Positions 23,174 through 42,392 of a DNA stretch of 64,000 bases are shown here, one piece after another. The stretch lies in NCBI GenBank assembly GCA_963782055.1, contig CAWAIF010000003.1:6304001-6368000 (forward strand), read 5' to 3'. Both the position numbers and the translations under genes were made by a program. Numbering within the stretch: the stretch's first letter is position 1; each line of letters starts with the position of its first letter. The notes under the pieces are model-generated. The model was given only the letters and a program-made list of their open reading frames with translations, had not been told where the DNA came from and made no database searches. Origin of the DNA: an uncultured delta proteobacterium (GTDB lineage Bacteria; Myxococcota_A; Polyangia; Polyangiales; Polyangiaceae).

Positions 23174-23587
23174 CTACTCCTGGTCTGGGAATACTTCGAT
23201 CGAGAGATTCACTCCAAGGCGAGCCAGTTGCACCACACAAGCATGCGAAATGGTGAATCCTGCATTCTCGCGCCCAACCAATCCCAGGTACAGCTCGCAA
23301 CTGCCGCCCGTTTCCACGAAGTCGTGCAACCATTGCTCGTTCTCGACCAGACGACGTACCCATTCGCCGATCAGATCCTCCATGTCGAACACCTGAGGCA
23401 GTTCGCCGCACCAATAGGTTTCCTGGCGTCGACCCGTCAATGGGTGGCCCTTTGGAGTTCGACGCTCAGCTCCAACCTTCCAAGAATACAACGGTTGAAG
23501 GCCGAGCCTGCTGGTGACCTCTTCCGGGGCCATGCTCGGGTGCGTCAGGCGACAAGCGAGGCTGTTGGGAGGACACCTCGAGATCAT
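23174..23587 (-). CDS. DUF4279-like protein, putative immunity protein for the orphan toxin tip
   Basis: PEEVTSRLGLQP...WKVG...RRTPKG...TYW pattern and C-terminal LARLGVNLSIEVF; ATGA overlap with the toxin stop; visibly lower GC. Confidence 0.7.
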   Translation of the reverse strand: MISRCPPNSLACRLTHPSMAPEEVTSRLGLQPLYSWKVGAERRTPKGHPLTGRRQETYWCGELPQVFDMEDLIGEWVRRLVENEQWLHDFVETGGSCELYLGLVGRENAGFTISHACVVQLARLGVNLSIEVFPDQE

Positions 23588-24090
23588 GGAAGGTAATCCT
23601 CGACTGGGCCATTATCGATGGCGTTACCTTCACCATCCCCAGTTATCACATGCCCATCCGGAGCGATCCCGACCCAATCCTTTGGTCCTGCGAGGACTCC
23701 CTCCTTGATTTTCTGATGTTGTTTAGTCCATGGTGTCTGATTGATGGGTTTCGTCCCGGTCGGACAGCCCTTCGGCTTGGCTTCCTTGGATCGCGATTGG
23801 GGCGTCTCCGCGAATAGACCGATCTGGTCAGAAATCCGGTCTCCGATCTCACCTCCGTAGATGCCGCCGAAGTAGATACCCGCCAGTCCACCCACTCCCA
23901 TCCCTACGGTCGCCTCGGCTGGGGCACCCACCACAGCCGCCGGACCGGTAGTCAGAAGTCCCGTGCCACCTCCAGCGACGAAACCAAGATCCGCGCCGAT
24001 GGCGCCACCGCCGACCGCGCCGAGCACCGTACCGATGAAGCGCCCGAGTGGAGTGTATCCCGATGGATCGATGCAGTTGACCGGGTCGTC
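23584..24090 (-). pseudogene. Orphan Rhs C-terminal toxin module (DPVNCIDPSG + Gly-zipper + putative toxin domain), 5'-truncated
   Basis: The frame reads DDPVNCIDPSGYTPLGRFIGTVLGAVGGG...WVGIAPDGHVITGDGEGNAIDNGPVEDYLP*. An in-frame TGA at 24091-24093 lies directly upstream. Confidence 0.85.
24055..24087. repeat. Copy of the Rhs core end (matches 27522-27554)
   Basis: gtatcccgatggatcgatgcagttgaccgggtc vs gtaccccgatggatcgatgcagttcaccgggtc, 31/33 identical. Confidence 0.9.
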
Positions 24091-24267
24091 TCACGTGTGC
24101 GGGTGCGCGAGGTGCCGAGCGGGTGGCGGGACGGCGCTCGACGCGGGCGTCCCGGAGCGCGCAGCGGGCAGCCGTGCGTGCTCGGGGGGCGGTTTTTGGT
24201 GGCGCGGATGGACCGGGGCCTGGGCCGCACTCGTGGAGCGAGCGCAGTGGAGCACGACGCGGGGAGA

Positions 24268-25224
24268 TCATGCGGCCCTCGGCGGGGCGCGAGCTCGGGG
24301 CTCGGGCAGCGCGGTGCGCACGAGGGCAGGCGTGTGGCAAGCGGGGCAGCGGCGCAGGTCGATGCCCGCGATTCGCAGCAGCAGGTCGGCGGCGTCGGCA
24401 CGGCGCTCCGGTCGCGCAGCGGGCGCGTGCGGACCCAGTCTGCGGCGTGCGGTCTCGAGGCGCGTGGTGGCGTGGCTGGCGGAGTGCAGGCCGTAGTGGC
24501 GGATCTTGACGAAGCCGCGCGGCAGCACGTGCTGGACGAAGCGCGCGAGCAGCTCCTCGGCCGGGACGGTGACCGACTTGCCGTCTCTGGTGCGGAAGGT
24601 GACGCCGCGCTCGCCCATCGAGACGCCCATCACGCGCACGGGGAAGAGGAAGCGACGGCGCGCGCGCACCCAGCGCGCGGCGTCGCCGGTGAGTCCGCCG
24701 CCGGTGACGATGGCGTGCACGTGGGGGTGGAAGAGCAGCGCGCGCGTCCAGGTGTGCAGGACCATCGTGACGCCGAGCTCGGCGCCGAGCCACTTCGGAT
24801 CCCGCGCGAGGGTGGCCAGCGTGTCGGCCGCGCTCGCGAAGAGCATGTCGAAGACCCGCGCGCGCGAGCGCCGCGCGACGGCGCGCAGCTCGGCGGGGAG
24901 CGTGAAGACGACGTGGAAGTAGTGCACGGGCAGAATGCGCTCGAGCCGCGTGGCGACCCACCGCGCCTGCGCGAGCGACTGGCACTTGGGACAGTGCCGG
25001 TTGCGGCACGAGTTGTACGACGGTCGCTCGAGCCCGCACGCGGTGCACACGTCCAGATGTCCGCCCAGCGCGGCAGTCCGGCATCGCTCGATCGCCCGCA
25101 GCGCCGACCGCTCCTCGGGACGCAGCACGCGGCCGCCGGCGAAGGCCTCGCCGTGGGCGCGCACCACGTCCGCGAGCTCGATGGGCGCCGCGCGCGTGCG
25201 CGCGGGCGCACACGACGGGTGCAT
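24268..25224 (-). pseudogene. IS91-family (HUH) transposase with in-frame internal deletion
   Basis: Zn-binding CRTAALGG...CTAC...SCRNRHCPKCQ, HUH motif HPHVH and HVLPRGFVKIRHYGL are present. FPVRVMG joins directly to VSMGERGVTF, and the YxxRY segment is absent. Confidence 0.75.
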
Positions 25225-25230
25225 CGGGGC

Positions 25231-26076
25231 TCAGGGCAGCGCGTCGAGGGGGCTCTGAATCGACTGCACGCGGGCGGTGCTCACGTGCAGGTAGGCCATC
25301 GTGCTCCTGAGCGACGCGTGCCCGAGCAAGACCTGCAACGTGCGAAGGTCGGTCCCTGCGTCGAGCAGGTGCGTGGCGAAGCTGTGGCGCAGCGTGTGCG
25401 GCGACACGCGCCGGGTGATGCCCGCGCGCCGCGCCGCCTTGAGGATCGCCCGGTGGACGGCCGCGCGCGTGAGGAGCGTCCCGGGCACGCGCCCCGGAAA
25501 CAGTTGCGGTCCTGCGGGTCGTGACGCCTTCCAGTACGCGCGCAGCGTCGCCAGCAGCCTCGCGCTGAGCATCACGTAGCGCTCACGCCCGCGCTTGGTG
25601 TGCCGCACGTGCAGGAGCATCCGCTTCGGATCGATGTCGTCCACCCGGAGCTTGCACACCTCGCTCACGCGCAGCCCCGCCCCGTAGGCGAGCATCACCA
25701 GGGCCCGGTGCTTGTGGCTCGTGAGCGCCGCGAGCAGCCGCGCCACCTCCGCGCTCGTCAGCACCACCGGCACGTGCATCGGCACCCGCATGCGCGCCAT
25801 CCCCAGCGTCGCCTCCGGCCGCTCCAGCGTCACCTCGTAGAGAAACCTCAGCGCGGCCGCGTGCACGTTGACCGTCAACGCCGCCAGCCTGCGCTCCGCC
25901 ACCAGGTGCAAGAGGAACGTCCGGATCTCCGCCGCCCCCAGCGCGCACGGCGACCGCCCGTGGTACTGCGCGAACCGCCGCACGCACCCCACGTACGTGG
26001 CGATCGTGTTGGCGCTCATCCCTCGCAGCGCGAGGTCCTCGCTCATCGTGTCCCGCAGTCTTCGCTTCGCACCCAT
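25231..26076 (-). CDS. Tyrosine recombinase (integrase, XerC/D-like) with N-terminal SAM-like domain
   Basis: YGAGLRVSE (R), TKRGRER (K), HTLRHSFATHLL (HxxR) and LLGHASLRSTMAY (H, Y); the catalytic set is intact. Confidence 0.95.
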   Translation of the reverse strand: MGAKRRLRDTMSEDLALRGMSANTIATYVGCVRRFAQYHGRSPCALGAAEIRTFLLHLVAERRLAALTVNVHAAALRFLYEVTLERPEATLGMARMRVPMHVPVVLTSAEVARLLAALTSHKHRALVMLAYGAGLRVSEVCKLRVDDIDPKRMLLHVRHTKRGRERYVMLSARLLATLRAYWKASRPAGPQLFPGRVPGTLLTRAAVHRAILKAARRAGITRRVSPHTLRHSFATHLLDAGTDLRTLQVLLGHASLRSTMAYLHVSTARVQSIQSPLDALP

Positions 26077-26245
26077 CGCGGCCTCCTTCGGCTCCGCGCG
26101 CGCCCACGAGCGGGCGGCGCGCGCCGCAGGATCGCCCGCATCACGGCACGCGAGGGCTACGAGGCGGGCTCGTCAGCGCGCACACGGCTCGCGGGGCTCC
26201 CGGGTCGCGAGCGAGCTTGATGCGGAGCCACGCTGCCGCGCAGCG

Positions 26246-26273
26246 GCTTCGTCCAAGATGGATTTCGTAAACT
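26246..26273 (+). other. dif-like 11-6-11 recombination site at the element end
   Basis: GCTTCGTCCAA-GATGGA-TTTCGTAAACT. The left arm recurs inverted at 26323-26332 (tggacgaagc). Confidence 0.4.
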
Positions 26274-26358
26274 TTCGCGCCCGACCGCGCTAGGATTTCC
26301 TATGCGCCTACCGAGCAGAAGCTGGACGAAGCACGTCGGGCGCCACGATACTGCATGA

Positions 26359-26468
26359 GGTGCTGGAGGAGGCGAGGAACGTCTTGTAGGTGGTGTCGTA
26401 GTGGTAGTCGTCACGCAGGCGGGGGCGCCGGTGAAGGACTCGCTCTTCGTCGCGACGCGGCCGCTCGC
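26359..26468. repeat. Degenerate copy of the Rhs core (matches 28302-28412)
   Basis: 110 nt aligning to 111 nt with 5 substitutions and a 1-nt deletion; encodes ASGRVATKSESF.GA.ACVTT. Confidence 0.9.
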
Positions 26469-26520: not shown

Positions 26521-27057
26521 CTACCCTCCACCATCGCGCAGGACAAGCGGTGCCCCCAGCTCCCGGAGGGAAACAATATCTACGATCCGGTCGTGATCGG
26601 AGTCATAATAACCAATGAGCTCCACATATCTGCCTTGGCACGCGGAAAAGCTCGCGAGTTGCTCACACCTGATCCATAGCCAGTAGAACTCGTGGTCGGG
26701 GTTGCCAAAGGACCCTAGCCTCGAACCGAACTCTACATGCTCGAGTGCGCGGTCAACCACGTGACCGTGCATGGTGTAGGGGACCTCGCACCTGGGCGAC
26801 TGCATCGTGGCATCCGTGTCCAGCGCAAGCCATCCTCTGACCTTCACGGCCTCGTGTGGCATGCCGCGTTCGGGATACGCCAAGGGCCGCGCGGACGTCG
26901 GCGTGCCAGCACCAGCCGTATATGCACAGAGCGGCGTCAGTCCTCTGGATTGCATCGGGAGAGGCGGAGGCACGTTGGCGTTGCATTGCGCTCCAAGAGC
27001 GACGATCAGCGCACCGAGGGTAACCTGCACGAACTTACCACCCGCCGCGCAGCTCAC
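26521..27057 (-). CDS. Putative cognate immunity/accessory protein of the main Rhs toxin
   Basis: GTGA overlap with the Rhs stop, lower GC, and an N-terminal hydrophobic stretch ending ALGAQC. Confidence 0.55.
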   Translation of the reverse strand: MSCAAGGKFVQVTLGALIVALGAQCNANVPPPLPMQSRGLTPLCAYTAGAGTPTSARPLAYPERGMPHEAVKVRGWLALDTDATMQSPRCEVPYTMHGHVVDRALEHVEFGSRLGSFGNPDHEFYWLWIRCEQLASFSACQGRYVELIGYYDSDHDRIVDIVSLRELGAPLVLRDGGG

Positions 27058-30000
27058 GGCTGAAGCCTAAACGGGACGATTAGATTTGGCGCATTTGCGG
27101 CCGTCCGGAGTAGTTGCAGGCTGCGCGCTCCACTAATCCAGCTCTGCGGCGATTCGTTCGGGCGCGGTATGTTGACCGGCCATGTGGCCGGCGGTATGTA
27201 GATGTACCCGTACCCGAAGCCGCTTCCCTTCCTCGCGTCCACGTAGAGGATTGGGGTGTGGTTGTCGCAGGCTGTCTTTATGTCTGAGGGTGAAAACGAG
27301 CCCCCATTCGGGTGCGTATGAAAGATCACCTGCGCACCAGAGTGCCAACCGATGCCCCCTCCGGTCGGGCTCACTTGCTGTAACGTATACGAGAACTTGC
27401 CAGAACCGCTCTTGTAAAAGACCCCGCCCCACTCGTTGTGTGTCTGCTCCGTACCGGCAAGCGCGTCACGCAAGCCGCTTAAGAATGCGTCCGGGCCGTA
27501 GTCGTACCGCTCGCCCGGAGCGTACCCCGATGGATCGATGCAGTTCACCGGGTCATTCCCACAGTACGCGTAGAAGTTGAGCCCGCCGCCGAAGCGGATC
27601 GGGTCCTTGCTCAGCCAGCGGTGCTCCCAGCCGCTGTAGTCGCGGGCGCCCATGTGGTAGATGGCGGGGTAGTAGTCGAAGAGGCCGCCGGCGAAGCCGA
27701 AGGGCTGGTAGGCGGGCAGGCTGGTCATCGCGCCGAAGTCGTTGTAGTAGGTGTACGGGCCGTCGATGATGTTGCCGGGTGTGCCGCCACACGCCGGGCC
27801 GCTCAGGCAAATGACCGCGCGCGCCGTGCCGATCCCGTCGCTGACGATCCGCAGGATGCTACCATCGGCACGGTAGACCAGATCCGGGATGTTCGGCTTC
27901 GTCACGTAGGCGAAGTGGGCCGTGACGGCCCCGTTGCTGTCCAGGGTCGCGATGACTCGGTCGCCCTGGTAGAGGTACCCCGCGCTCTCGGCACCGGGCG
28001 GCTGGCTGCCGCTGCTGGTCCGGAAGACGAGGCGCCCCTGGCCGTCGATGGCGTAGTCGAGCGTCACGTTGCTGGATGGATCGGAGTAGTGACGGAGGTT
28101 GCCGAGGGGATCGTAGCCGAAGCTCTGGGTCTGCCCGCTCCGGTGGCGGACCACGGCCTCGCCGTTGGAGGAGTAGTCCCAGGTCCAGTAGCCGTCATTG
28201 ATGAGCCGATCCTGCGCGTCGTACGTCCACGCGCTCCCGGCGCCGCCGTTGCCGTCGGCGTCATAGGGGGTGTTCGCGGGCGGGGCCGCGCAGCCCCCGG
28301 TGGTGGTGGAGTAGGCGAGGAACGTCTTGTAGGTCGTGTCGTAGTGGTAGGTCGTCACGCAGGCGGCGGCGCCGTTGAAGGACTCGCTCTTCGTCGCGAC
28401 GCGGCCGCTCGCAGGATCGCGAGTGTAGACCAGAGCGTAGCGCGGCTGAGCGTTATAGGTGATCGTGTCGCTGATCAACGCCCCGTAGCGGTCGTAGTTG
28501 AACTCCTCGTGGAGGTGGTTGTTGTCGGTGTCCGTGCTCGCGAGCATGCGGTTGTAACCGTTCGCGCCGCGGTTGAGCGTCATGGTCATGCCCCCCACAT
28601 CGACCGCGCTGAGCACGCCGTCGCCGTCCAGGTGGAAGGTGTACCCGAGGCCACCGTCGATGTCGCGCGTGGTCAGCCGGCCGTAGCCATCGTAGCCGTA
28701 GTTGACTTTGCGCGTGGCGTTGGGCGACGTGAGCCCGTAGGTCTCCTGCGTCAGCATCGAGCCCTCGTAGCTGTAGGTGAGGTCGACCTGGCCGTTGTCG
28801 AGGGTGTGCAGGTGCCCCGTCGACTCGTACGCGTACTGGTTCGTGACGGTCCCGGTGAACGGCGCGAAGTAGCTCACCGCGGACGGACGCCCGGCGCCGT
28901 CATACGCGTAGCTCACCGTGCGACCAGGTTCCTGCATGCTCGTCGTGAGGCCATCCAGATCGTAAAGGTAGCTGGTCGGGCCGGTGGCGCCAACGGGCGG
29001 TGGCGTGTAGGTGTCGAGCAGGTCCAGAGGGGTCGCGGAGAACTGGTGCCACTTTCCCGCGGGGGTGTCCGCCCAGGTTACGTTGCCGTTCGGGTCGTAG
29101 TACCGGAACAGCGTTCGGCCGGGAATGCTGAACCGCTGGGGTCGACCCACAGGGTCGAACATCGAGTAGCCGTACGTGCCGATGCCCGGCACGTCGATGG
29201 AGGCCACCGCTCCGGTCGCGCCGTCGTACGTGAGGTTCGTGATGCGCGAGTTGACGGTGTAGGTCTCGAGCTGTCCGGTCGCGGGGTAGTAGCCGATCTG
29301 CACCGGGTAGAGCGGCGCGTTCGCGCCCGGCACGTTCCCCGTCACCTGGATGCTGGACGGACGCTCATGCTGGCTGTCCAGCGTGATCTCCGTCCTGGCG
29401 CCGGCGGCGCTGGTCTCGGTGACCTTCGACTGGCTCGAGTCGTACTGGGCCGTCCAGGTGAGGGTGTTGTTGTCGATGTCGGACCGGGTGGTGGTGTCTG
29501 TCTCGGACGTCACGTCGTCGGTCTGCGGATCGGTGACGACCATGCTCGAGTGGGTGGTGGTGACCGTCTTGGTGCCGTCGACCACCACGCCCTTCGCCGG
29601 GTAGCTCGCGTTCACGCCGAAGCGGGGGTCGGGGGCGTACGTGCTGGAGATCTGCGTTCCGTCGCGGAGCGAGACGTCCTCCGATCCGTCGGCGTACGTC
29701 GTGTGGGTGGACAGCTGGCCCGCCGGATCCGTGATGATCCGCGACTCCACCTGGTTGGTGCCCTCGTCGCCGGTCGCGCCACGGGTGGTGTCGACGGAGT
29801 AGGTGGTCGCGCGGGATTCCGCGGTGGTCAGCGCGACGTTCCACCCGCTGCCCGTCACGGGCATCGAACGCGCCAGGGTGACCCCGGGCGAGCTCTGCGG
29901 GTTCTTGTCGTTGGTCAGGAGGCCGACGCTGTCGTACGTGAAGTGGTGGTGCTGGCCCTTCGCGTCGGTGAGGTCGGTGAGCAGGCCGCCGGTGCCGTAG

Positions 30001-33000
30001 GCGAGCTGGATCGTCTCGTTGTTGGCGTTGACAATTCCCGCGAGGTAGAGCGTGCCGCCGTAGTCCTGGAACTCCAGCGTCGTCGGCTCGTTGCTCGCGA
30101 TCCCGGTCGGGGGCGTGATGCTCTTGCAGTCGTCGAAGCCGCAGGAGGAGCCGGCGTCGGTAATCTGGGTGACGTTGTCGTAGTCATCCGTGATGGAGGA
30201 CAAGACGCCCCCGGTGTACGCGAGGGTCTCGAGTGGTACGCCTCGGTAGCGGCTGAGGGTGGCGACGTGCTGCCCGCTGCTGTCGAACTTGTAAATGGCG
30301 GAGCCGTCGGGGCTCAACAGGCGGTAGCCCGCGGTCGGGTCCGGCGTGCCGAGGGGCTGCAAGGCCCGGACGATCGTGCCCGTGTTCCAGTTGCTGGGTT
30401 CACGGCTGGTGTAGAACAGCGATCCGTCCTGCCCGTCGGCCAGTCCCACCAGCTCCGAGCCGCCGCCGTGACCGCCGCCCGTGGCGGGCGCGCCGTCCAC
30501 GTAGGCGATCGTATTCTGCCCGCTGTTGACGATGCAGCTGCTACCTACCACCGTTGACATGGTCCCGTCTGGCTCGATCCGGCGCACTGCAGCCTGGCCC
30601 TTGTCGGCGATGTACAGCGCTCCGGCCTTCCACAGCAGCCGCTGGGGGGCATCGAGCGGCGCTAGGGTTGCCGCGTTCCCATCGCCCCAGTCATGGGGGC
30701 AGGCGTTCCCGTAAACACCGTCGTCGAATCCGTTGCCGCCCGCGGCGACGTGCAGCTTGCCGTCGGTGGACACGCGGAACACTACCGCGCGACTCAGGGC
30801 TGCCCCCTCCTCGGAGAAATAGACATCGCCGTTCGGGGCGACGGCCACGCCTTCGACGTCCTGCAGGGCATAGCTCGTCGCGGCCTGCCCTTCCATCGTG
30901 GCGAGGTCCGCCAGGTTGCCATTCCCAGAGCCGGCGATCGTCTCCAAAACGCCGTCAGTCCGTACGCGCCGGACCTCTGACTCCACCTTCCCGCGGTTAT
31001 CGACGAACACGACGCTGCCATCGGGGGCGGTGGTGATCGCGCTCACGGTGTTCAGGGAGGCCGCCGTTGCCAGGCCCCCGGCGGCCTCGAAGTGCCCATC
31101 CGTTCGGCACCCAAGCTGGGAAGGCCGCGCGTCGCCGGCGAGCACCGTCGTGTGAGCGTTGCTCCAATGGGGTGGATTGTCCGTCGGGGCGTCCACGTGG
31201 AGCACGTCGCATGCGCCTCCGACGAGCACCGCGCCGTCCCGCGCCGGAGCCACGGCCTGGCCGTTCACGTACACGCTCCCGAGGTTAGTGCCGTTGCTCG
31301 GCACCGGTGGGGCGCCGGCATCGACGCTCGACACGATCGTGTTGCCGGGAAACGCCCTCACCGCGCCGCTGTAGAGTCCGATGTCGGCGGCGAGTATGGT
31401 TCCGTTGCTGTCGCTCGTGGCCGTCAGCCCTCCCAGCTGATCCGAGGTGTCCTCCTGCCGCACCATGTCCGGAAGCTGGGTCGCGGTCCGCTTCTCTCCA
31501 TACCCCGTCCAGAGCGTGCCACTGCTCGGCTCGTACACGTGCTCCGCGCTCAGGGTCCACCCGCCGAAGCCGAGGGGTTGGGCGTCGAGTGCGTCGAGCC
31601 GCACGTCGTAGTCGCGGCGCAGAAAGATCACCCGCTCGTTGCGGTCACCATCCACGACCACGTCGCCACCGGTCCCGAAGGAGCCGAAGGTGGGGGTGAG
31701 GCCGGAGGGCGTCGCCGTGTAGGCGTAGGCCACGCGGACGTGGGCGACCACCGAGCCCTGGATCGGCCGCCCGTACGCGTCCTCGCGATTCCACGCCCAC
31801 GACACCGACTGGTTCTTCTTGTTCGCGTCGAGCGGCGTGAAGAGGGCCCGCTGGCCCGCGACGTCGATCTCCACCTCGGCGTAGTTCGGGGCGACCTGGA
31901 GCGTCGTGTTGTCGGTGTACGGAACCGTGATGACCGGGTGGAATCCGCGCTGCGTCTCGCTCCGGTAGTGCAGGCTGTACGGAGTTCCGGCGATCGGGAT
32001 GTCCTCGCCGAGCACCTGATTTTCGCATTCGATGATGGATCCAACGTGCTTGCAGCCCCCGTCCTTGGCCGTGCTCGCGGACGGAGTCAGGTTGGGCGGC
32101 GCCGATGCGCCCGCCTGGGCTCCGGAGGTCCAATTGGTATCAATCCCAGAGAAGTGCGGGAGGGGGACGCGCCACACCTGCCGCTGGGTGACGTTGCCGT
32201 AGACCGTCGCGAGCTCCTGACGCTCGCCAGGGGTGATGGGCGGCGACTCCAGGGAGTAGTCGCTGATCTCGGTCGTGCAGCCGCCGGTGCCCTTGCCGAG
32301 CCGTGCCATGGCGTTCTGCACATCGATGATGCAGTAAACCATGCCGTTCGCCTCCGGTTGCCAGACCCCGCGCGACCGATCGTAGCTCCCGGTCGGGATC
32401 ACGTTCTTCCGGTGACCTTGCCCGTCCGCCGTGTCGTCCATCGAGACGCCGGTGAAGTTGTCCAGGTAGAAGAGGACGTCGTGGTTGAAGTGGACCGTCG
32501 CGTCGCCGGCCTCGAGCATCGCCGCCTCGAACGCGTAGGTGTAGGCGCTCTGGGGCGGTAGCTCCCCGGGGAGGGCAAGCCGGCCCTCGGACCCCACGGT
32601 GTACTCCGTGACGTGCATGGTCACGGAGGGACCGCAGTTTGGACACTCCTGCTGATTCACCGTCGTGCCCGGCGGTATCAGAACCGTGGCGGTCCGTTGA
32701 CTATCTGCGTCGCTATGCGCGTTACCTCTCACGTCCTGCCAGTAGTCGACGCCGGCACCCAGGTTGATGGTCTTGGTGTTCTCTGGCTTCGTGAGCGCGA
32801 TGTCCGGGAGCACGGTCCAGTCGAGCCATCGCGTCTCGGCGCGCCGCTGGACCGTGAGGTACGCGGGGTCGTTCACGTGGTCCGACAGCTCCACCACGTA
32901 CGTGGTCCCGCCGTTCACGGCGATGTCGAACCAGCCGTCCGCCCGCGTCTCGGTCGTGCCGTACTCCGGATGGTTCAGGATGTTCACGGTGATGTTGCCG

Positions 33001-33914
33001 AGGTTGACGCTCGGATTGTCGCGGTCGACGACGTGCCCGCGGATGATGGAGACGTGGCTCTTCACCATGTTCGCCGTGACGCCGGTCTGGATCTGGCTGA
33101 CCGCGTCGAGCATGCCCTGCCCGATGTCGCTCGGGACCGTGCCGCCGCCCGGATAGGGGGTGACCGTGCCGCCCGGCACGCCACACCCCTGGATCGGCGT
33201 GTTGACCGGGTGGCCGTCGACACACGCGTCGTCGGTGCACGCGTTGCCGTCGTCGACCGAAACGTCTCCGCCCGTGGTCTGTTGGCCGCTCTCCTCGCAG
33301 TAGGTGGTCGTGTACTGCGCGACTCCATTCTGGTCCGTTCCGTCGCACTGCGCCCCGACGACGGTGCCCGCAGCCACTTTCTCCGTGTTGTCGATCACCC
33401 CGTTGACGCACTTGTCCACGGTGCAGGGGTCCCCATCGTCGGCGTTGAAGTCCACGTCGGCCTCCAGCTGGGCGGACTCCACTCCGGGCTGCGTCACGCC
33501 CGCCGAGAGCATCAGGTACGACGTGGTCGTCGGACTCCCCGCAGACAGCGCGTTCGTGCAGATCGTGAGGGGTAGCGGGTTGGTCTCCAGCCCCGTCTCC
33601 TGCGTGCGCCCGTATGTGCAGTAACCCCCTTCGACCGTGAACGTGACCCAGATCGAGTCGCCAGCCTGGACGTTGGCGCTCACGACGTTCACGGTTGCGG
33701 GCACCAGGACATGCCGCTCGCTCCCCAGTGACAGGTAGTAGCTGCCGCTGTCGGACCATGCCGGAATCCCCTGATTCCCGCAGGCGGCGGCGAGTGGGCT
33801 CTGCGTGCTGGCTGGCTGCTCGTCGGGTGAACCGCCGCACGAGAGGCCGATCACCACTGCCAGGACAAGCATCGCCGCCGACCGCCCGGAGATGCGCAGC
33901 TTCGTCAGTCCCAT
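27054..33914 (-). CDS. Lipoprotein-anchored teneurin-like YD/Rhs protein with JAB/DUF4329-like C-terminal toxin (~2,286 aa)
   Basis: RBS GAGGAGGGAG; lipobox VIGLSC; DDGxxCTxDxC repeats; [55 protein letters not shown]; NHL repeats; YD repeats; core [32 protein letters not shown]; tip EWGG...[14 protein letters not shown]. Confidence 0.9.
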   Translation of the reverse strand: [2286 protein letters not shown]

Positions 33915-33957: not shown

Positions 33958-34093
33958 CGCGTCAACCCATTTAGTGCCGCGACACGACGTTGTTGCACGT
34001 GGACGCGTAGTCGGTGGGTCCGGCGTCCGGATGCTGAGATTCGTAGGCAATATCGGGAGCCAGAGACAAGGAGTCGAGTGATCTGTGAGTGCC

Positions 34094-34115
34094 GTCTACT
34101 CCCTAGGGAGTAGAC
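34094..34115. promoter_or_regulatory. Perfect 22-bp palindrome in a divergent intergenic region; putative operator
   Basis: GTCTACTCCCTAGGGAGTAGAC equals its own reverse complement. Confidence 0.5.
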
Positions 34116-34192
34116 CCATGTGTTCAGGTGGACGCGATGCCCCGGGCACGTCTCCATGGATGGAGCGGCGCGACACATGGTACCGTCGCATC

Positions 34193-36598
34193 ATGCGGTG
34201 GGAAGTCCGGAGACGAGGCCCCATCGTCGTCGTGGCGGCAGTGCTCTCCCTCTGCCACGCCTGCGGGGGCACGACGGCGACCGCACCCCCGCATGCCGTG
34301 CTCGGGGCGTCGGAGCTGGACTTCGGCCTCGTCGATTGCGGCAGCACCGAGTCGACCGAGCTGCTGACGATCGGGAACAGCGGCGGCTCCCCGCTGACGT
34401 GGGAGGCGAGCCTGGGCAAGACGGACGCGTTCTCTCTGGATGGCGCCGCCACGGGCACGCTCGCCCCGGGAGAGACGGCGAGCCTCCCGGTGAAGGCGAA
34501 GGTCCCGGGCGGCTCGCCCGCGGCCGAGGCGCTCGACACCACGCTCTGGGTGACCACGAACGATCCGGCGAACCCGACGAGCAGCCTTCCGCTCCACCTG
34601 CTCTCCCGCGGGGCGATGCTCACCGTGAAACCCGCCAGCGCGGACTTCGGGCAGATCCCGCTCGGCCTGAAGGCGCCGGACATCCCCGCGTCGGTCACCA
34701 ACTCCGGCAACGTGGCGGTCACGCTGGCGCTCGGCGCGCCGCAGGACTCGCAGTTCACCGTGACATAGGACGGCTCCCCCTTCGCGGCGACCCTGCCACC
34801 GGGCGGCGAGCTCACCACCACCCTGGGCTTTGCGCCGACCATCGACAAGGCGATGGTGGATGCCTCTGCCCTGCTCGTGACTGGCGCGGTGTGCGCCGCC
34901 CCCAAGACGATCGCGATCAAGGGCGAGGGCACGAAGGGGATCGCGGGCGTGAGCCCGGGCCTGCTCGACTTCGGTGTGGTCGGCTGCGCGACGGCGGCGC
35001 CGCCGCAGAAGGTGACCCTGCTCAACGCGGGGAACCAGGCGTACGACTTCACCGCCACGCTGTCGCAGGGCGGAGGCTCGCCGTACGTGGTCACCCCGAG
35101 CAGCGGGACGGTGCCCCCCAAGTCGCAAGTGCAGCTCGTGGTGGCGCCGAAGACCGTCCCGTCGCAGTCCGCGCTGACGCCGGACCTCTACGACGACACG
35201 CTGGCGATCACGACCACCGCGCTCGACGACGTGCCGCACGCCGTCGCGCTGCTGGAGTCGGCAGGCGGCGCCATCCTCTCCACGAGCGCGCCCCTGGTCT
35301 TCTCGCGGCTCGCCGTCGGGGCCGCGCCCGCTCAGCAGCAGCTCGTGATCACCAACACCGGCAACCAGCCGGCGCAGGTGATCCTGAGCCCACCCAAGCC
35401 CTTCTCGGCGGCGAGCCCGGTGCTCGTACCCGCGGGTGGCATGGCCACCACCACCATCTCCTTCACGCCCGACCCCGGAAGCCTGGGCCCGGTCACACAG
35501 GACCTCGGGATGACCACCAGCGATCCGGTGTGCGCGCCGCTCACCGCCGCGAACGCGACCGCGACGACGTACGACCGGGCGAAGATGATCGCGGCGGGGG
35601 GCTGGCACGCCTGCGCGACGGCGGTCAGCGGGGTGACGTATTGCTGGGGCCTCAACATGGTCGGTGAGCTCGGTGACGGCACCACGCTAATGGGGAAGAA
35701 GCCGGTGCCCGTGAGCGGCCTGAAGGACGTCGTCGGGCTCGGGCTGGGCGAGCACCATTCGTGCGCCGTGCTTCAGGGCGGCACCGTCGAGTGCTGGGGC
35801 GCGAACTTCAACGGGCAGCTCGGCGACGGGAGCACCGGAGAAGACTCGACCAAGCCCGTCGTGGTGTCGAACCTCGCCGATGCCATCCAGGTAGCTGGCG
35901 GCATGAGGTCGTCCTATGCGCTGACATCGACGGGAAGCGTGGTGGCGTGGGGCCTCAACGGCGACGGCCAGCTCGGCGACGGCACGACGCTCGACTCCAA
36001 CGTCCCCGTGGTGGTCTCCGGCATCACCGACGCCGTGCAGGTCGCCGGACGATGGGCGACAGCCTGCGCGCTGCGTGCCGGCGGCGGCGTCTGGTGCTGG
36101 GGCCACGCTTTTTTGGGCGACGGGACGACCGGATCGTCGGCCGTGCCGGTGGACACGGGGCTGACGGACATCGTGCAAGTGGGCGGCGGGCCCGGTGCGC
36201 AGGGGAATGGGTGCGCGGTCGAGAAGACGGGCGGCGTGGAGTGCTGGGGCTACAACCCGTACTCGATGACGCCGAGCTCCTTCGGGGGGCTCACCGACGC
36301 GGTGCAGGTCGAGGTCGGCACGGAGTCCGCGTGCGCGCTGCGCGCGGGCGGAGGCGTCATGTGCTGGGGCGACAACTCGTATGGACAGCTCGGGAACGGA
36401 TGGGGGGTCGCCAGCTGGGTGCCCGTCGCGGTATCAGGCGTCACCAACGCCGCGAGCATCGCCGTGGGGCCAGACTTCGGCTGCGTGATGAATGGCGACG
36501 GTACATTGGAGTGCTGGGGGCGAGGCGACCTCTGTCAACTGGGCAGCGGCGTCCAGGGCGGGAGCTTCACGCCGGTGTCCGTGGTCGGGTTCGACTGA
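34193..36598 (+). pseudogene. Lipoprotein with Ig-like (choice-of-anchor D/ASH-like) domains and RCC1 repeats, interrupted by an in-frame TAG at 34766-34768
   Basis: Track ORFs 34085..34768 and 34853..36598 share one frame: FTVT*DGSPFAATLPPGG. LDFGxV Ig-like repeats occur on both sides of the stop, with CWGxNxxGQLGDG RCC1 repeats downstream. Confidence 0.8.
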
Positions 36599-36621: not shown

Positions 36622-38232
36622 TCAATTCGGCGGCGGGACGCTCTTCAGGAAGTAGACGTACGAGTACGCGCCGGCGCCGTTGCAGGGGGCTCCGCCGCCC
36701 ACGATGATCGAGCCGTCCAGCAGCGTCGCCGACACGAGCTCCATGTTGTTGTCCTTCAGCGTGGGGAACGCCGTGACGTTCCCACCCGCCCCGTCGACGA
36801 CGTCGACCGCGTTGGTGGTCGGGAAGGTGTTGCTCTGGCAGCCGTAGGTGGTGGGGTAGGGCGCGTCGACGCCGCCGGCGACCATCACCGTGCCGTCGCC
36901 GAGCAGCGCGGAGGCGAACTTGAGCCGGGGAGAGCTCAGCTTCTGCGAGAGGGTGGTCACCTTCGGCTGGCCGACGTCGATCATCTCGATCTCGTCGGTG
37001 GGGGTGTTGTTGCCGTTGATCACGTCGTTTCCTCCGGGCGCCATCAGGCGGCCGTCGGGGAGCGTGAGCACCGCGACCGCCCCGTGGGCGAGGGGCGCGG
37101 CGACGGTCGAGAGCTTGTCGGTGTCGGGGTCGTAGATCTCGCTCTGGCCGGTGGACAGGAAGGCCACGCGCCCGTCGCGCATGCGCACCGGCCAGCCGAA
37201 CTGCGTGTTGGCGGAGGTGATGGACAGGGCGGTGAACATCTCGGTGGCGGGATCGAAGACCTCCGCGGTGTTCTTGCCGTTGGAGGTGATGAGCACGCGG
37301 CCGTCGGGCAGCAGGATGGGGCGCATGTAGATGCGGGTGGTGTCGAGCACGGTGCCCTTCGCCTGCGTGAACGTGTTGGTCGTCGGGTCGAAGAGGTCGG
37401 CGACGGCGCGATCGCCGCTGGTCTGGCAGCCATTGCCGGTGGGGATGTTGCAGGTGCCGACGATGAGCGCGCGGCCGTCGAGCAGGGTGATCGCCGCGGT
37501 CGCGTAGCGCGGGACGGTCATGTCGTTGGCCGCCGGCGTGATGGCGTGCGTCTGCGGGTCGTACAGCTCGCCCGACTTGAGCGCCGAGGTGGGCTGGGTG
37601 TTGGAGGTCCCGCCGACGATGAGCACCCGGCCGTCCTGCAGCGTCGTCATGGCGGGGAAGTTGCCGCGGGGGGTGCTCATGCTCACCGTCGTCCACTGCT
37701 TCTCGAAGCCCTCGGTCCGGTAGGTGAAGGACTGCGGCAGCGTGGCGGTGTACTGCCCCACGGCGACGTGCACGTCGTAGGTGCCCACACCCGCGGGCGG
37801 CGTCACCGCCAGCGCGGTGGTCGCGTCGATGAAGCGCGCCGGCGCGCGCCCGTCGCCGATGGTGACGCGCATGCCCGCGGCGAAGCCCTGGCCGTGGAGG
37901 GTGACGTAGGCGCCGCCGTTGACGTAGCCCTTGTCGCCGGTGAGCGAGGTCAGCAAGAGGCCGCACTTGGGATCGGAGGAGCAGGATCCCGCGCAGCAGC
38001 TCTCTCCCTGCGCGCACACGCGGCCGCACGCGCCGCAGGCGTTGGCGGAGGTCTGCGTGTCCTCGCAGGTGCCACCGCAGTTTACCTGGCCGGTCGGGCA
38101 GGTCGGCGCGGCGTCAGCCGCGTCCACACCGCCTGCGTCGGGCCCGGCGTCGCCTCCGGTGAAGGGGAGCGGCGAGCTCTGGCCACAGGCGACCGCGAAG
38201 GAAAGAAGGAAAAGGGCAATCGGCTTCTGCAT
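36622..38232 (-). CDS. Lipoprotein with Cys-rich motif, IPT/TIG domain and kelch repeats
   Basis: FAVAC lipobox; CGGTCEDTQTSANACGACGRVC; GGAYVTLHGQGF; repeated PR...ATxLxDGRVLIxGG. Confidence 0.85.
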   Translation of the reverse strand: MQKPIALFLLSFAVACGQSSPLPFTGGDAGPDAGGVDAADAAPTCPTGQVNCGGTCEDTQTSANACGACGRVCAQGESCCAGSCSSDPKCGLLLTSLTGDKGYVNGGAYVTLHGQGFAAGMRVTIGDGRAPARFIDATTALAVTPPAGVGTYDVHVAVGQYTATLPQSFTYRTEGFEKQWTTVSMSTPRGNFPAMTTLQDGRVLIVGGTSNTQPTSALKSGELYDPQTHAITPAANDMTVPRYATAAITLLDGRALIVGTCNIPTGNGCQTSGDRAVADLFDPTTNTFTQAKGTVLDTTRIYMRPILLPDGRVLITSNGKNTAEVFDPATEMFTALSITSANTQFGWPVRMRDGRVAFLSTGQSEIYDPDTDKLSTVAAPLAHGAVAVLTLPDGRLMAPGGNDVINGNNTPTDEIEMIDVGQPKVTTLSQKLSSPRLKFASALLGDGTVMVAGGVDAPYPTTYGCQSNTFPTTNAVDVVDGAGGNVTAFPTLKDNNMELVSATLLDGSIIVGGGAPCNGAGAYSYVYFLKSVPPPN

Positions 38233-40536: not shown

Positions 40537-41157
40537 CTACTCGTCAGGCGCAGGGTCGTCCCCGCGAAACCATCGGACGAGCACCTCCGCGAGCCGGCCT
40601 ATTGCGTTACCCATCTTCAGCCGTTCCAGGGACAGGCTGGACGCGAGTTCCTCGAACAAGGGAGGCGAGGCACGTAGCCGATACTCATTGAGCGCCCTTC
40701 GCAGACTTTGCTTCGGCTCGGCCTCATCGGGGGTTACCGTAGCAGCGTGGAGAAGCGAGCGCTTCTTCGCGAGCTCCGCAAGCACGCGATCCCACACCGG
40801 CACAAGCGCAATCTCGAACTCCGGATCGAAAGCGATCGCGGCAACGCGCTCCTTATCAACGCCGACACGTGAGAGAGCGTCCTTGACGTCAGCTTCGACC
40901 CGTGACGGCTCCACGTCCTCGCGGCCGGACCCGTGATGGTCCCACAGGATGATGAAGTGTAACGCCTCGTCCCGGAGAAACGGACCCAACGCGGCGGCAG
41001 GATCGGTGGCGACGCGCGCGTCGTGCATCGGGTCGCGGACCGCTTGCCACGCGAAGTTGCGCAAGCAACGCCGTGCTACTCCGCGCGCGATGAGCTTCGT
41101 TACGAACCGCTCCGCATCGGCGTCAGCGAACAGTACGACCAGCTCGGATCCCGCCAC
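40537..41157 (-). CDS. ATPase-partner protein resembling MADS MAD4 (TOPRIM-like acidic motifs)
   Basis: LVVLFAD...HD...LWDHHGSG...FDPEFE...PK pattern; GTG start overlaps the ATPase TAG by 1 nt. Confidence 0.6.
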   Translation of the reverse strand: MAGSELVVLFADADAERFVTKLIARGVARRCLRNFAWQAVRDPMHDARVATDPAAALGPFLRDEALHFIILWDHHGSGREDVEPSRVEADVKDALSRVGVDKERVAAIAFDPEFEIALVPVWDRVLAELAKKRSLLHAATVTPDEAEPKQSLRRALNEYRLRASPPLFEELASSLSLERLKMGNAIGRLAEVLVRWFRGDDPAPDE

Positions 41158-42392
41158 TAGAGAACCCCTGTTGCAAAGACATCCGCCAGCCGCACTCGAC
41201 CCCGCCATTGCTGCAGTTCGACCACCTCCGTGCCGCGCAGAATTTGAGCGGTCCCATGTTCAGTTCGACGGAACACGAGCGCCTGTTCCATTGATGTCTG
41301 GGCGAGGAACACGGGGGAATGTGTCGCGACAAAGACCTGCATGGTCCTCATTTGCGACAGGGCATCGAAGACGGATTGTATCGCCAGCGGATGCAGACCG
41401 TTCTCGGGCTCCTCCACGAGGTAGATACCGCGCTGCTGTTCTGTCTCGGCATACGCCAAAAGGGATAGTGCGAGCAGACGCAGCGTCCCGTCGGAGAGCA
41501 GCCACGACGGCACCGGCCCCTCGTGTGCACCGTGGAAGCGACCTCGCAGAACCACGTGCTTGTCCTCTGGACGTTCCCAGGTGTCGATACTCGCGAGCCC
41601 GCTGACTGCATCACCAACGTGACCAACCCACTGCCCGAAAGCTACCGGATCGCGCTGCTCCAGCGAGCGCGCGGCCACGGCGAGGTTCGAGCCGTCACGA
41701 AGCAGACGCGTTGGACTGCGCGGGGGCGAGGGCAGTCTCAGCATGTGGGAATCGAGTTCCACAAGCATCACGCCATCGCGCAAAAGGTTCCTAACCGCGA
41801 TGGCGCCGGGGAAGCGATCCGTGTCCTCGGGGATATTGCCGAGCGCCGAGCGGGTCGGACCAAAACGGAACTGGTTGTTCCAATCGGTCTTCTCATCCCG
41901 GAAGTAGTCCTTGCCCTCCCCGGTCTTGCCCACGATCTTTCGCCAACCCTTGGGCGCGGTGTGGTGCACCACCTCGCCGAGCTCGGCGTCATCGCCGAAC
42001 AAGCTCCGTTGGCGCTCCACCGAGTTCGGCCCCTCCGGCAGTCGAAACAGGTTCTCACGCATGACGACCGGGGCCCCGCTAGCACCGCCGGGCTCAGGGC
42101 CCACTTCCAACTCGTAGCGATACGTCCCCTCCGCCAGCTGGATCGCTATCCCGAAGGCAACCGGCTGGTCTTCGCGGAAGCACAGGTCGCGGAAGCCTGC
42201 CCCAGAGCCGTCGATCGCCATGTCGACAGCACGATCCACACCGTCGGAGAGCACATGGCTTACGAACCGGAGGGCGGACATGAGGGTGCTCTTGCCCGAC
42301 GCGTTTCGTCCGACGAGGACGGCGAAACGGCCGAGATCCACGCGGTTGCTTTCAAGCATCCGGAAGTTGCGCACCCACACCCGCTGAATCAT
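41157..42392 (-). CDS. ABC/AAA_21-type ATPase resembling MADS MAD3
   Basis: Walker A GRNASGKS, DGSNL, signature-like PSWLLSDGTLRLLAL, Walker B YLVEEPENGLHP and ATHSP. Confidence 0.8.
   Translation of the reverse strand: MIQRVWVRNFRMLESNRVDLGRFAVLVGRNASGKSTLMSALRFVSHVLSDGVDRAVDMAIDGSGAGFRDLCFREDQPVAFGIAIQLAEGTYRYELEVGPEPGGASGAPVVMRENLFRLPEGPNSVERQRSLFGDDAELGEVVHHTAPKGWRKIVGKTGEGKDYFRDEKTDWNNQFRFGPTRSALGNIPEDTDRFPGAIAVRNLLRDGVMLVELDSHMLRLPSPPRSPTRLLRDGSNLAVAARSLEQRDPVAFGQWVGHVGDAVSGLASIDTWERPEDKHVVLRGRFHGAHEGPVPSWLLSDGTLRLLALSLLAYAETEQQRGIYLVEEPENGLHPLAIQSVFDALSQMRTMQVFVATHSPVFLAQTSMEQALVFRRTEHGTAQILRGTEVVELQQWRGRVRLADVFATGVL

Follow-up and report, generated by a model that had tools for sequence, protein, structure and literature searches.

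A teneurin-like protein gene and its small downstream partner

The window analysed here is a 64,000-nucleotide stretch from an uncultured delta proteobacterium of the Polyangiaceae (assembly GCA_963782055.1, contig CAWAIF010000003.1, positions 6,304,001 to 6,368,000; genome GC 72%, three contigs, 97% complete). Its reverse strand carries an intact gene for a teneurin-like protein (TLP) that ends in a JAB-type tip, followed directly by a small gene, 26521-27057 (Table 1). Together these two genes very probably form an antibacterial toxin-immunity pair. The TLP frame is uninterrupted from 34178 to 27054. The start at 33914, which has a GGAGG ribosome site just 5' of it, is common to the TLP paralogs of this genome.

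A phmmer search of the PDB returned the TLP of Bacillus inaquosorum (9IFO/9PT5, E 1e-143), with residues 72-818 aligned to 9IFO 190-927 and residues 942-2131 to 9IFO 1049-2144. Vertebrate teneurins followed, from E 2e-24 (teneurin-3). Pfam recognised TTR_TEN1-4 (PF25020) and TEN_NHL (PF25021, E 5e-9, residues 990-1113), and NCBIfam returned the Rhs core TIGR03696 (E 7e-18) and a YD repeat, and nothing else. From the 9IFO alignment and the TEN_NHL match, the FN-plug, NHL and YD shell all lie in one frame and in TLP order. The TTR and TIP domains precede the FN-plug, as seen from the PF25020 match and an alignment to the Bacillus TLP that is unbroken through the TIP region. The product is almost certainly a member of the bacterial TLP family.

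These searches bear out the FN-plug/NHL/YD superfold of teneurins proposed in an earlier sequence-only reading of the window, and every motif lies in the protein in the order then claimed. The lipobox is present at C26, as are the two DDGxxCTxDxC Cys-rich repeats (residues 159-169 and 221-231) and an intact DPxxxxDPxG cleavage core (residues 2121-2130) with its catalytic residues kept. FN-plug motifs were found at residues 631-652 (ENQVLG...) and 784-794. Two identifications had to be revised. The motif read as a carboxypeptidase-regulatory-like domain (HPEYG..., residues 315-336) exists, but belongs to the teneurin TTR domain. The Cys-rich stalk does sit where teneurins have epidermal growth factor (EGF) repeats, but homology to them was ruled out by the absence of any Pfam EGF match at E<=10; the repeats match Dicty_CTDC weakly (E 1.5e-4). 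Both autocleavage sites are conserved, namely the Arg and two Asp of the bipartite core, predicted to cut after Y2131 (the Bacillus cut is after L2144), and G625/S626 in the FN-plug. Residues 45-158, near the N-terminus, are a candidate adhesion or recognition part.

Bacterial TLPs have been described as polymorphic toxins whose tips are caged and whose immunity genes lie downstream (PMC13018210; here and below, statements on the literature refer to the accessible part of each source). Among Myxococcota, more than 20% of species have them, in up to four copies and bearing Sec/SPII signals, and they occur in Gram-positive bacteria too. Their N-terminal domains include Dicty_CTDC and CarboxypepD, and no delivery machinery is known for them. 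Since this architecture is already published, the gene alone is one more family member. Its traits match those of the family and support what the earlier reading proposed: a polymorphic toxin of teneurin-like build, anchored as a lipoprotein, ending in a JAB tip and lacking a dedicated machine for injection. TLP-like matches were found in 11 of 40 relatives' genomes, and seven of the eight N-termini inspected carry a signal and a Cys, judged by eye. None of the six further genomes in the genus, which are 84-98% complete, gave a TLP match at E<=1e-30; this genome has four TLPs.

Table 1. Features of the TLP locus. Positions refer to the window; residue numbers refer to the TLP.
Feature	Position	Strand	Remarks
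DUF4279 protein, putative cytoplasmic immunity of orphan tip	23174..23587	(-)	PF14106, E 5e-9
Orphan DPxG core copy and different low-GC tip	23584..24087	(-)	core 35/38 nt identical to that of the toxin
Mobile element, right end missing	24091..26308	(-)	three parts: repeat half-unit, tyrosine recombinase, IS91-family transposase
IS91-family transposase, internal deletion	24268-25224	(-)	within mobile element
Tyrosine recombinase (integrase)	25231-26076	(-)	within mobile element
Left half of 100-bp repeat unit	26247-26308	(-)	end of mobile element
Duplicated YD-shell piece, 110 nt	26359..26468	(-)	95% identical to 28302-28412; 5' remnant of orphan module
Putative immunity gene, 178 residues	26521..27057	(-)	GTGA overlap with toxin stop; N-terminal export signal
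TLP gene, intact	27054..33914	(-)	2286 residues
JAB/JAMM (DUF4329-like) tip, 155 residues	27054..27521	(-)	Zn motif E2161, H2199, H2201, S2208, D2211
Rhs core aspartyl autoprotease	27522..27746	(-)	R2091, D2104, D2127 (Bacillus R2103, D2116, D2140)
YD/RHS shell, approximate limits	27747..30344	(-)	Pfam, NCBIfam, 9IFO alignment
NHL beta-propeller, residues ~820-1190, approximate limits	30345..31457	(-)	PF25021 and 9IFO alignment
FN-plug, residues ~576-818	31461..32189	(-)	N-terminal autocleavage site G625/S626 (Bacillus G723/S724)
TIP insertion domain, residues ~374-575	32190..32795	(-)	alignment to Bacillus TLP; domain order from PMC13018210
Teneurin TTR-like domain, residues 285-373	32796..33062	(-)	PF25020, E 3e-13
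Two DDGxxCTxDxC repeats, Dicty_CTDC-like stalk	33222..33440	(-)	Pfam
N-terminal domain, residues 45-158, without known family	33441..33782	(-)	almost the same in paralog 2; paralogs 3 and 4 diverge here
Signal peptide and lipobox, Cys26	33837..33914	(-)	read from sequence; kept in all four paralogs
Ig-like ASH/HYDIN and RCC1-propeller lipoprotein gene	34085..36598	(+)	head-to-head with TLP gene; in-frame stop 34766-34768

A predicted JAMM-fold tip

The zinc motif E...HxH...S..D of the tip is intact, with the sequence HTH at residues 2199-2201. The tip has a GC content of 0.60 (0.72 at third codon positions) against 0.675 (0.90) for the body. Among Pfam families Prok-JAB alone matched it, weakly (E 0.009), and PF14220 (Tox-JAB-2/DUF4329) gave no match to the tip at E<=10, nor in a search of the genome. 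In the ESM Atlas the nearest cluster was DUF4329 (0.93), followed by Toxin-JAB1 (0.92). By these sequence comparisons the tip is a relative of DUF4329, not a member by profile. The low GC, the E..HTH..S..D motif and the JAB/DUF4329-like character given in the earlier reading stand.

Homologues of the tip are few. Five of 1.8 billion representatives matched at E<=0.001, two of them over the full length at 46-50% identity, and no homologues were found among longer proteins. One full-length relative (46% identity) sits on another TLP, P0003 (3041 residues), which has a long Kelch-like and Cys-rich N-terminus, judged by eye, and a shell 29% identical. Searches of related loci gave no further tips. 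In a 10-row alignment the E and both H are invariant, and the S and D are kept in nine rows. An AlphaFold model built on this alignment reached a pLDDT of 82. Each of the top 15 VIA rows for it is a chain of MPN/JAB fold, and the highest scores go to three JAMM isopeptidases, PfJAMM1 (Z 7.5, root-mean-square deviation 3.4, 106 aligned), Rpn11 (Z 7.4) and CSN5 (Z 7.3). The BFVD match list includes JAB-labelled viral proteins. As modelled, the tip has the MPN (JAMM/JAB) fold. Stand-alone JAB/DUF4329-like proteins with signal-like N-termini (by eye) and no toxin carrier were also met (L028, L029, L032, L033 and L051).

Partners of JAB tips tend to carry export signals

The product of 26521-27057 starts with a hydrophobic signal, in which either an atypical lipobox (GAQC) or a site for signal peptidase I can be read. 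No homologue of it was found, the best ESM neighbour (0.89) being unnamed, and its likeness to two partners of other JAB tips (L031 and L045) is not significant (hhalign probability 1.5).

C-terminal JAB tips were gathered from 401 genomes of the phylum, 401 of the class and two named records. Left out of the set were L037 (JAB not terminal), L053 (housekeeping context) and the five stand-alone signal-bearing JAB proteins. The controls were 105 Rhs/TLP loci (90 TIGR03696 matches and 15 others), of which 97 were scored and seven dropped as truncated; control locus L076, which is not among the 97, turned out to hold a JAB tip with a lipoprotein partner. Carriers were viewed over their last 1.5 kb, and five of the JAB tips were also in the search profile. 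Export was called by a home-made hydrophobicity/lipobox rule, fixed and identical for JAB and control partners. The gene downstream carries an export signal for 14 of 18 C-terminal JAB tips, compared with 15 of 97 other Rhs/TLP tips, and a lipobox in 9/18 and 3/97 cases, respectively. When only partners starting within 40 nt of the toxin stop are counted, the export signal is found in 14/17 JAB loci and 12/67 others. The JAB locus from E. coli (L056) has a partner with an export signal; we take this carrier and partner, which come from an unannotated record, to be RhsB and YhhH.

The same division exists within the present genome. The tip of paralog 2 is again of JAB type, and its partner has a lipobox; the tips of paralogs 3 and 4 are of other kinds, and their partners are cytoplasmic. 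An exported partner thus goes with each of the two JAB tips and a cytoplasmic one with each of the two others, so that the location of the partner follows the tip, not the carrier. Immunity proteins are usually located where the toxin acts, as for the amidases and lipases of type VI secretion systems (T6SS). The exported-partner pattern therefore indicates a target in the envelope, and the target of this tip probably lies outside the cytoplasm. Moreover, the tip of a Bacillus TLP is toxic solely when supplied with a signal peptide (PMC13018210). Expression of the present tip in the cytoplasm may give a false negative, because 26521-27057 carries an export signal.

Proposed exchange of tips among paralogs and an orphan module

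The four TLP paralogs, like the orphan module described below and the export signal on 26521-27057, are additions to the earlier reading. This gene and the one at C3:2240874 are intact, and the other two are split by a 1.5-kb insertion sequence. The insertions (C3:1500851-1502360 and C2:10351-11852) both lie in the N-terminal stalk region. The element, which we take to be IS66-like, has 14 copies in the genome. Paralogs 1 and 2 share 79-99% DNA identity per 100-codon bin, and the match ends right at the DPxG codons. All four paralogs have different tips, diverging at the DPxG core, and a coupled small gene lies downstream of each variable tip.

Downstream of 26521-27057, the shell piece, core copy, low-GC tip and DUF4279 gene (Table 1) look like a classical orphan module, the middle of which would have been replaced by the integrase and IS91 element. 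Orphan modules are standard at Rhs loci (10.1101/2025.05.08.652813). The word 'orphan' is absent from the accessible text and searchable supplements of PMC13018210. A second copy of the 3' part of the orphan tip with its DUF4279 gene (84% DNA identity) lies at C3:2725095-2725744, its 5' side cut by the 100-bp unit. The pattern at the conserved core is consistent with tips being exchanged there by recombination, via paralogs and orphan modules. To judge from the orphan module, TLPs may diversify as classical Rhs loci do, by replacing their tips.

The repeat unit bordering the mobile element was considered as a recombination site for toxin cassettes. This was ruled out: the left part of the 62/100-bp repeat has 46 copies in the genome and the unit hosts the inserted integrase and IS91 element. 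Several copies adjoin Rhs fragments and tip-immunity pairs, and six of ten Rhs cores lie within 2.2 kb of one. However, the unit is not a dedicated TLP device, because paralogs 2-4 lie 39-550 kb from any copy. Copies occur near C3 ~2.72-2.74, 4.41-4.49 and 5.17-5.27 Mb. Two units also flank a 916-residue TLP/Rhs shell fragment (C3:5240908-5244243); its tip is of HExxH type, and the N-terminus of its partner is hydrophobic.

Neighbouring genes

The Ig/RCC1 lipoprotein gene is found head-to-head with all four TLP paralogs here, including a 36-39% identical one (with a fifth copy following on C2; the four outside the window are at C3:1503084, C3:2241051, C2:12482 and C2:15071). It was not found upstream in the TLP loci of eight relatives, several of which have flanks below 3 kb, and in five of 40 relatives it lies on contigs without TLP matches. 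A role as a general TLP accessory was therefore dropped. Low-depth contigs showed no informative joint. Convergent with the Ig/RCC1 gene is a lipoprotein-like gene with STIG1-like, IPT/TIG and Kelch domains (36622-38232, reverse strand). Further along, an AAA_21 (AbiEii-type) ATPase and then a 223-residue open reading frame (ORF) without a Pfam match (40537-42392, reverse strand) lie in a lower-GC stretch and are possibly a defence pair. Rfam gave no match between 22000 and 38000.

Delivery

The sequence-only reading had linked this lipoprotein to SitA toxins and to their transfer by TraAB outer-membrane exchange (OME). SitA toxins are OME cargo, need TraAB and carry cytoplasmic nucleases (PMC8546572). 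The TraA model TIGR04566 has no match in this genome or in eight genomes of the family, and matches 13 of 151 genomes of the class. None of the 19 MYXO-CTERM matches in the genome lies within 15 kb of any of the 17 OmpA matches, and no TraA-like gene was seen upstream of the 12 OmpA matches inspected. OME delivery was rejected on these grounds. TraA is described here as not found, since in a genome 97% complete in three contigs a very divergent TraA is possible.

VgrG (PF05954) and VipB (PF05943) have no match genome-wide, with the controls detected. PAAR and TcB were looked for in the window, where no VgrG, PAAR or TcB family was found among the 39 ORFs scanned with Pfam (203 ORFs of at least 100 residues are listed). 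To this extent, the claim that none of these modules is visible in the window holds. M. xanthus has two large, signal-bearing Rhs proteins, Rhs4 and Rhs5, that need neither OME nor T6SS to antagonise neighbours (PMC10433427); by analogy, they may be a better comparison for this TLP than SitA.

Proposed mechanism and alternative readings

On balance, we favour a membrane-anchored TLP toxin whose warhead acts outside the cytoplasm of its target. The protein would be exported by Sec and lipidated at Cys26, for which the motif is present, and would be displayed on the surface, as proposed for other TLPs (PMC13018210). The TTR-TIP-FN-plug-NHL-YD body would fold into a closed shell, with cuts after Y2131 and at G625/S626 and the tip staying caged; the residues are present here, and cutting and caging have been shown for the Bacillus homolog only. 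Upon contact with a neighbour, or from a vesicle, the shell would open and the tip would enter the neighbour's periplasm. There the tip, as a zinc-dependent hydrolase of JAMM fold, may cleave a bond in the envelope; an amide or isopeptide bond in a peptidoglycan stem peptide, a cross-link or a lipoprotein link is the most likely kind. In the producer's periplasm the exported 26521-27057 protein would block the tip. Over time tips would be swapped by recombination at the conserved core, from paralogs and orphan modules. Characterised JAB enzymes are peptidases, and their pockets suit extended peptide tails that contain small residues (PMC3239186). A stem peptide or cross-link of peptidoglycan would fit this preference. 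That the tip cuts an amide bond of the cell wall is put forward tentatively, at slightly worse than even chances; a lipid or lipid II target is the main alternative within the envelope.

A number of observations weigh against this reading. Modelled without the alignment, the tip reaches a pLDDT of only 39, so the JAB fold leans on the alignment. The structural scores are middling, every Z being below 8 and the best Foldseek match in the PDB having an E of 8e-3. The canonical JAMM spacing is HxH-x7-S; here six residues separate HxH from S, one below that consensus. The 26521-27057 product fails the lipobox rule, was scored on its signal only and has no homolog. The thresholds of the signal rule were set after the JAB partners had been viewed. 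Fisher p values for the compartment comparison are 4e-7 and 1e-6, and overstate the difference because kin are not independent. The cytoplasmic control class is inflated, because some control partners are wrongly picked ORFs, an effect limited by the close-coupling count. Among the four JAB misses, the partners at L049 and L045 have a signal by eye and L039 has no credible partner, and a Tenacibaculum DUF4329 tip, whose partner has no signal, is a clear counter-example.

Published predictions also run the other way. For Tox-JAB-1 and -2, nuclease activity was predicted on the analogy of RadC (PMC3482391), and surveys of Salmonella and of Shiga toxin-producing E. coli (STEC) put an RNase label on DUF4329 (PMC10469887; 10.1101/2024.03.05.583533). 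Our TLP could thus carry a cytoplasmic nuclease or RNase, with the exported neighbour blocking uptake at the envelope or not being an immunity protein at all. The Tenacibaculum locus would suit this, and RadC (Z 5.8) appears in the fold list with deaminases (together Z 5.8-6.0). However, the JAMM isopeptidases outrank RadC, by less than 2 Z units, and exported partners usually go with JAB tips and rarely with others. Moreover, the nuclease assignments are themselves predictions; the STEC preprint calls the activity and substrate of DUF4329 unknown, and the terms in question do not occur in PMC12994826. No experimental test of the activity or compartment of a JAB tip was found in the literature searched, which most subscription papers lie outside. 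We consider a cytoplasmic nuclease unlikely, and the exported-partner pattern calls the published predictions into question and points instead to the envelope.

More improbable is a protein without toxicity that serves, much as teneurins do, as an adhesin or signalling receptor and whose JAB tip is an enzyme for processing. Such a role would accommodate the exported stand-alone JAB proteins, the pairing of each paralog with an Ig/RCC1 surface lipoprotein, and the finding that three of nine TLP tips tested inhibited E. coli (PMC13018210). Set against it are the low-GC swappable tips with their own coupled small genes and the orphan tip-DUF4279 module, a toxin-immunity signature, as well as autoprotease residues that are intact, unlike those of mammalian teneurins. 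A SitA-like kin-discrimination toxin passed from cell to cell by OME is very improbable, although the TLP is, like SitA, a lipoprotein, TraB-like OmpA+TSP3 proteins are present in the genome and divergent traA alleles could escape the model, the traAB genes being patchily distributed and divergent within the order (PMC6372800). Besides the negative TraA search, some social myxobacteria lack traAB and OME (PMC6372800); the TLPs of Gram-positive bacteria and the OME-independent action of Rhs4/5 also argue against it.

Comparison with known systems and significance

With bacterial TLPs (9IFO/9PT5; PMC13018210) the protein shares the order TTR-TIP-FN-plug-NHL-YD, both autocleavage sites, a variable tip of ~15 kDa, a small gene directly downstream and the absence of a delivery machine, as well as the SPII signal seen in Myxococcota, Dicty_CTDC repeats and up to four copies per genome. 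Its own features are the JAB tip, the exported immunity candidate, the orphan module and the head-to-head Ig/RCC1 lipoprotein. The terms JAB, DUF4329, MPN, HTHP and HTHG are absent from the accessible text of PMC13018210 and from 10 of its 11 supplements, figures being outside that search. With the Tox-JAB-2/DUF4329 and Tox-JAB-1 tips of Rhs proteins (PMC3482391) it shares the E...H[ST]H...S..D motif, the position after the Rhs core and the JAB fold, but it differs in the lack of a PF14220 match, the TLP carrier and a partner without known family. The immunity protein of Tox-JAB-1, Imm65, is a lipoprotein, the sole such immunity protein in that collection, and in this resembles the exported partner here. 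Animal teneurins share the TTR, FN-plug, NHL and YD superfold (E 2e-24). In contrast, the present protein has a predicted lipid anchor where teneurins have a transmembrane helix and an intracellular domain; it includes a TIP, keeps its autoprotease residues (predicted active) and ends in a JAB domain. A transmembrane helix, EGF repeats and an ABD/Tox-GHH end were not found. By description, SitA has the lipoprotein anchor in common with it but differs in its need for TraAB, TraA not being found here, and in its cytoplasmic nucleases; Rhs4/5, likened in the same way, are also large, signal-bearing Rhs-type proteins.

Three things are new relative to the accessible parts of the literature examined: a TLP that carries a JAB tip, an orphan module at its locus, and comparative evidence for action of JAB/DUF4329 tips outside the cytoplasm. 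Tox-JAB/DUF4329 tips have been predicted nucleases since 2012, with no measured activity in that literature, and the exported-partner pattern makes their function testable. A wider possibility, which we regard as rather doubtful, would do away with the nuclease assignment: the JAB/DUF4329 tips of TLPs and of ordinary Rhs proteins, up to those of E. coli, would instead form a new class of zinc isopeptidases that act in the periplasm. Such enzymes would have the deubiquitinase fold, would cut the cross-links of peptidoglycan or the links between lipoproteins and the wall, and would be blocked by immunity proteins that are exported and unrelated. In such a scheme a lipid-anchored teneurin shell would need no injection machine, because the neighbour's outer membrane would be the only barrier for its warhead to cross. 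If the envelope reading is true, the JAMM fold of the proteasome and signalosome would extend to the bacterial envelope. Delivery of TLPs without a machine was left open by the 2026 paper (PMC13018210). This genome has four TLPs, with TraA and T6SS undetected (VgrG and VipB models). Some of its closely related shells carry tips of envelope type and others tips of cytoplasm type, which is relevant to how TLPs deliver their cargo.

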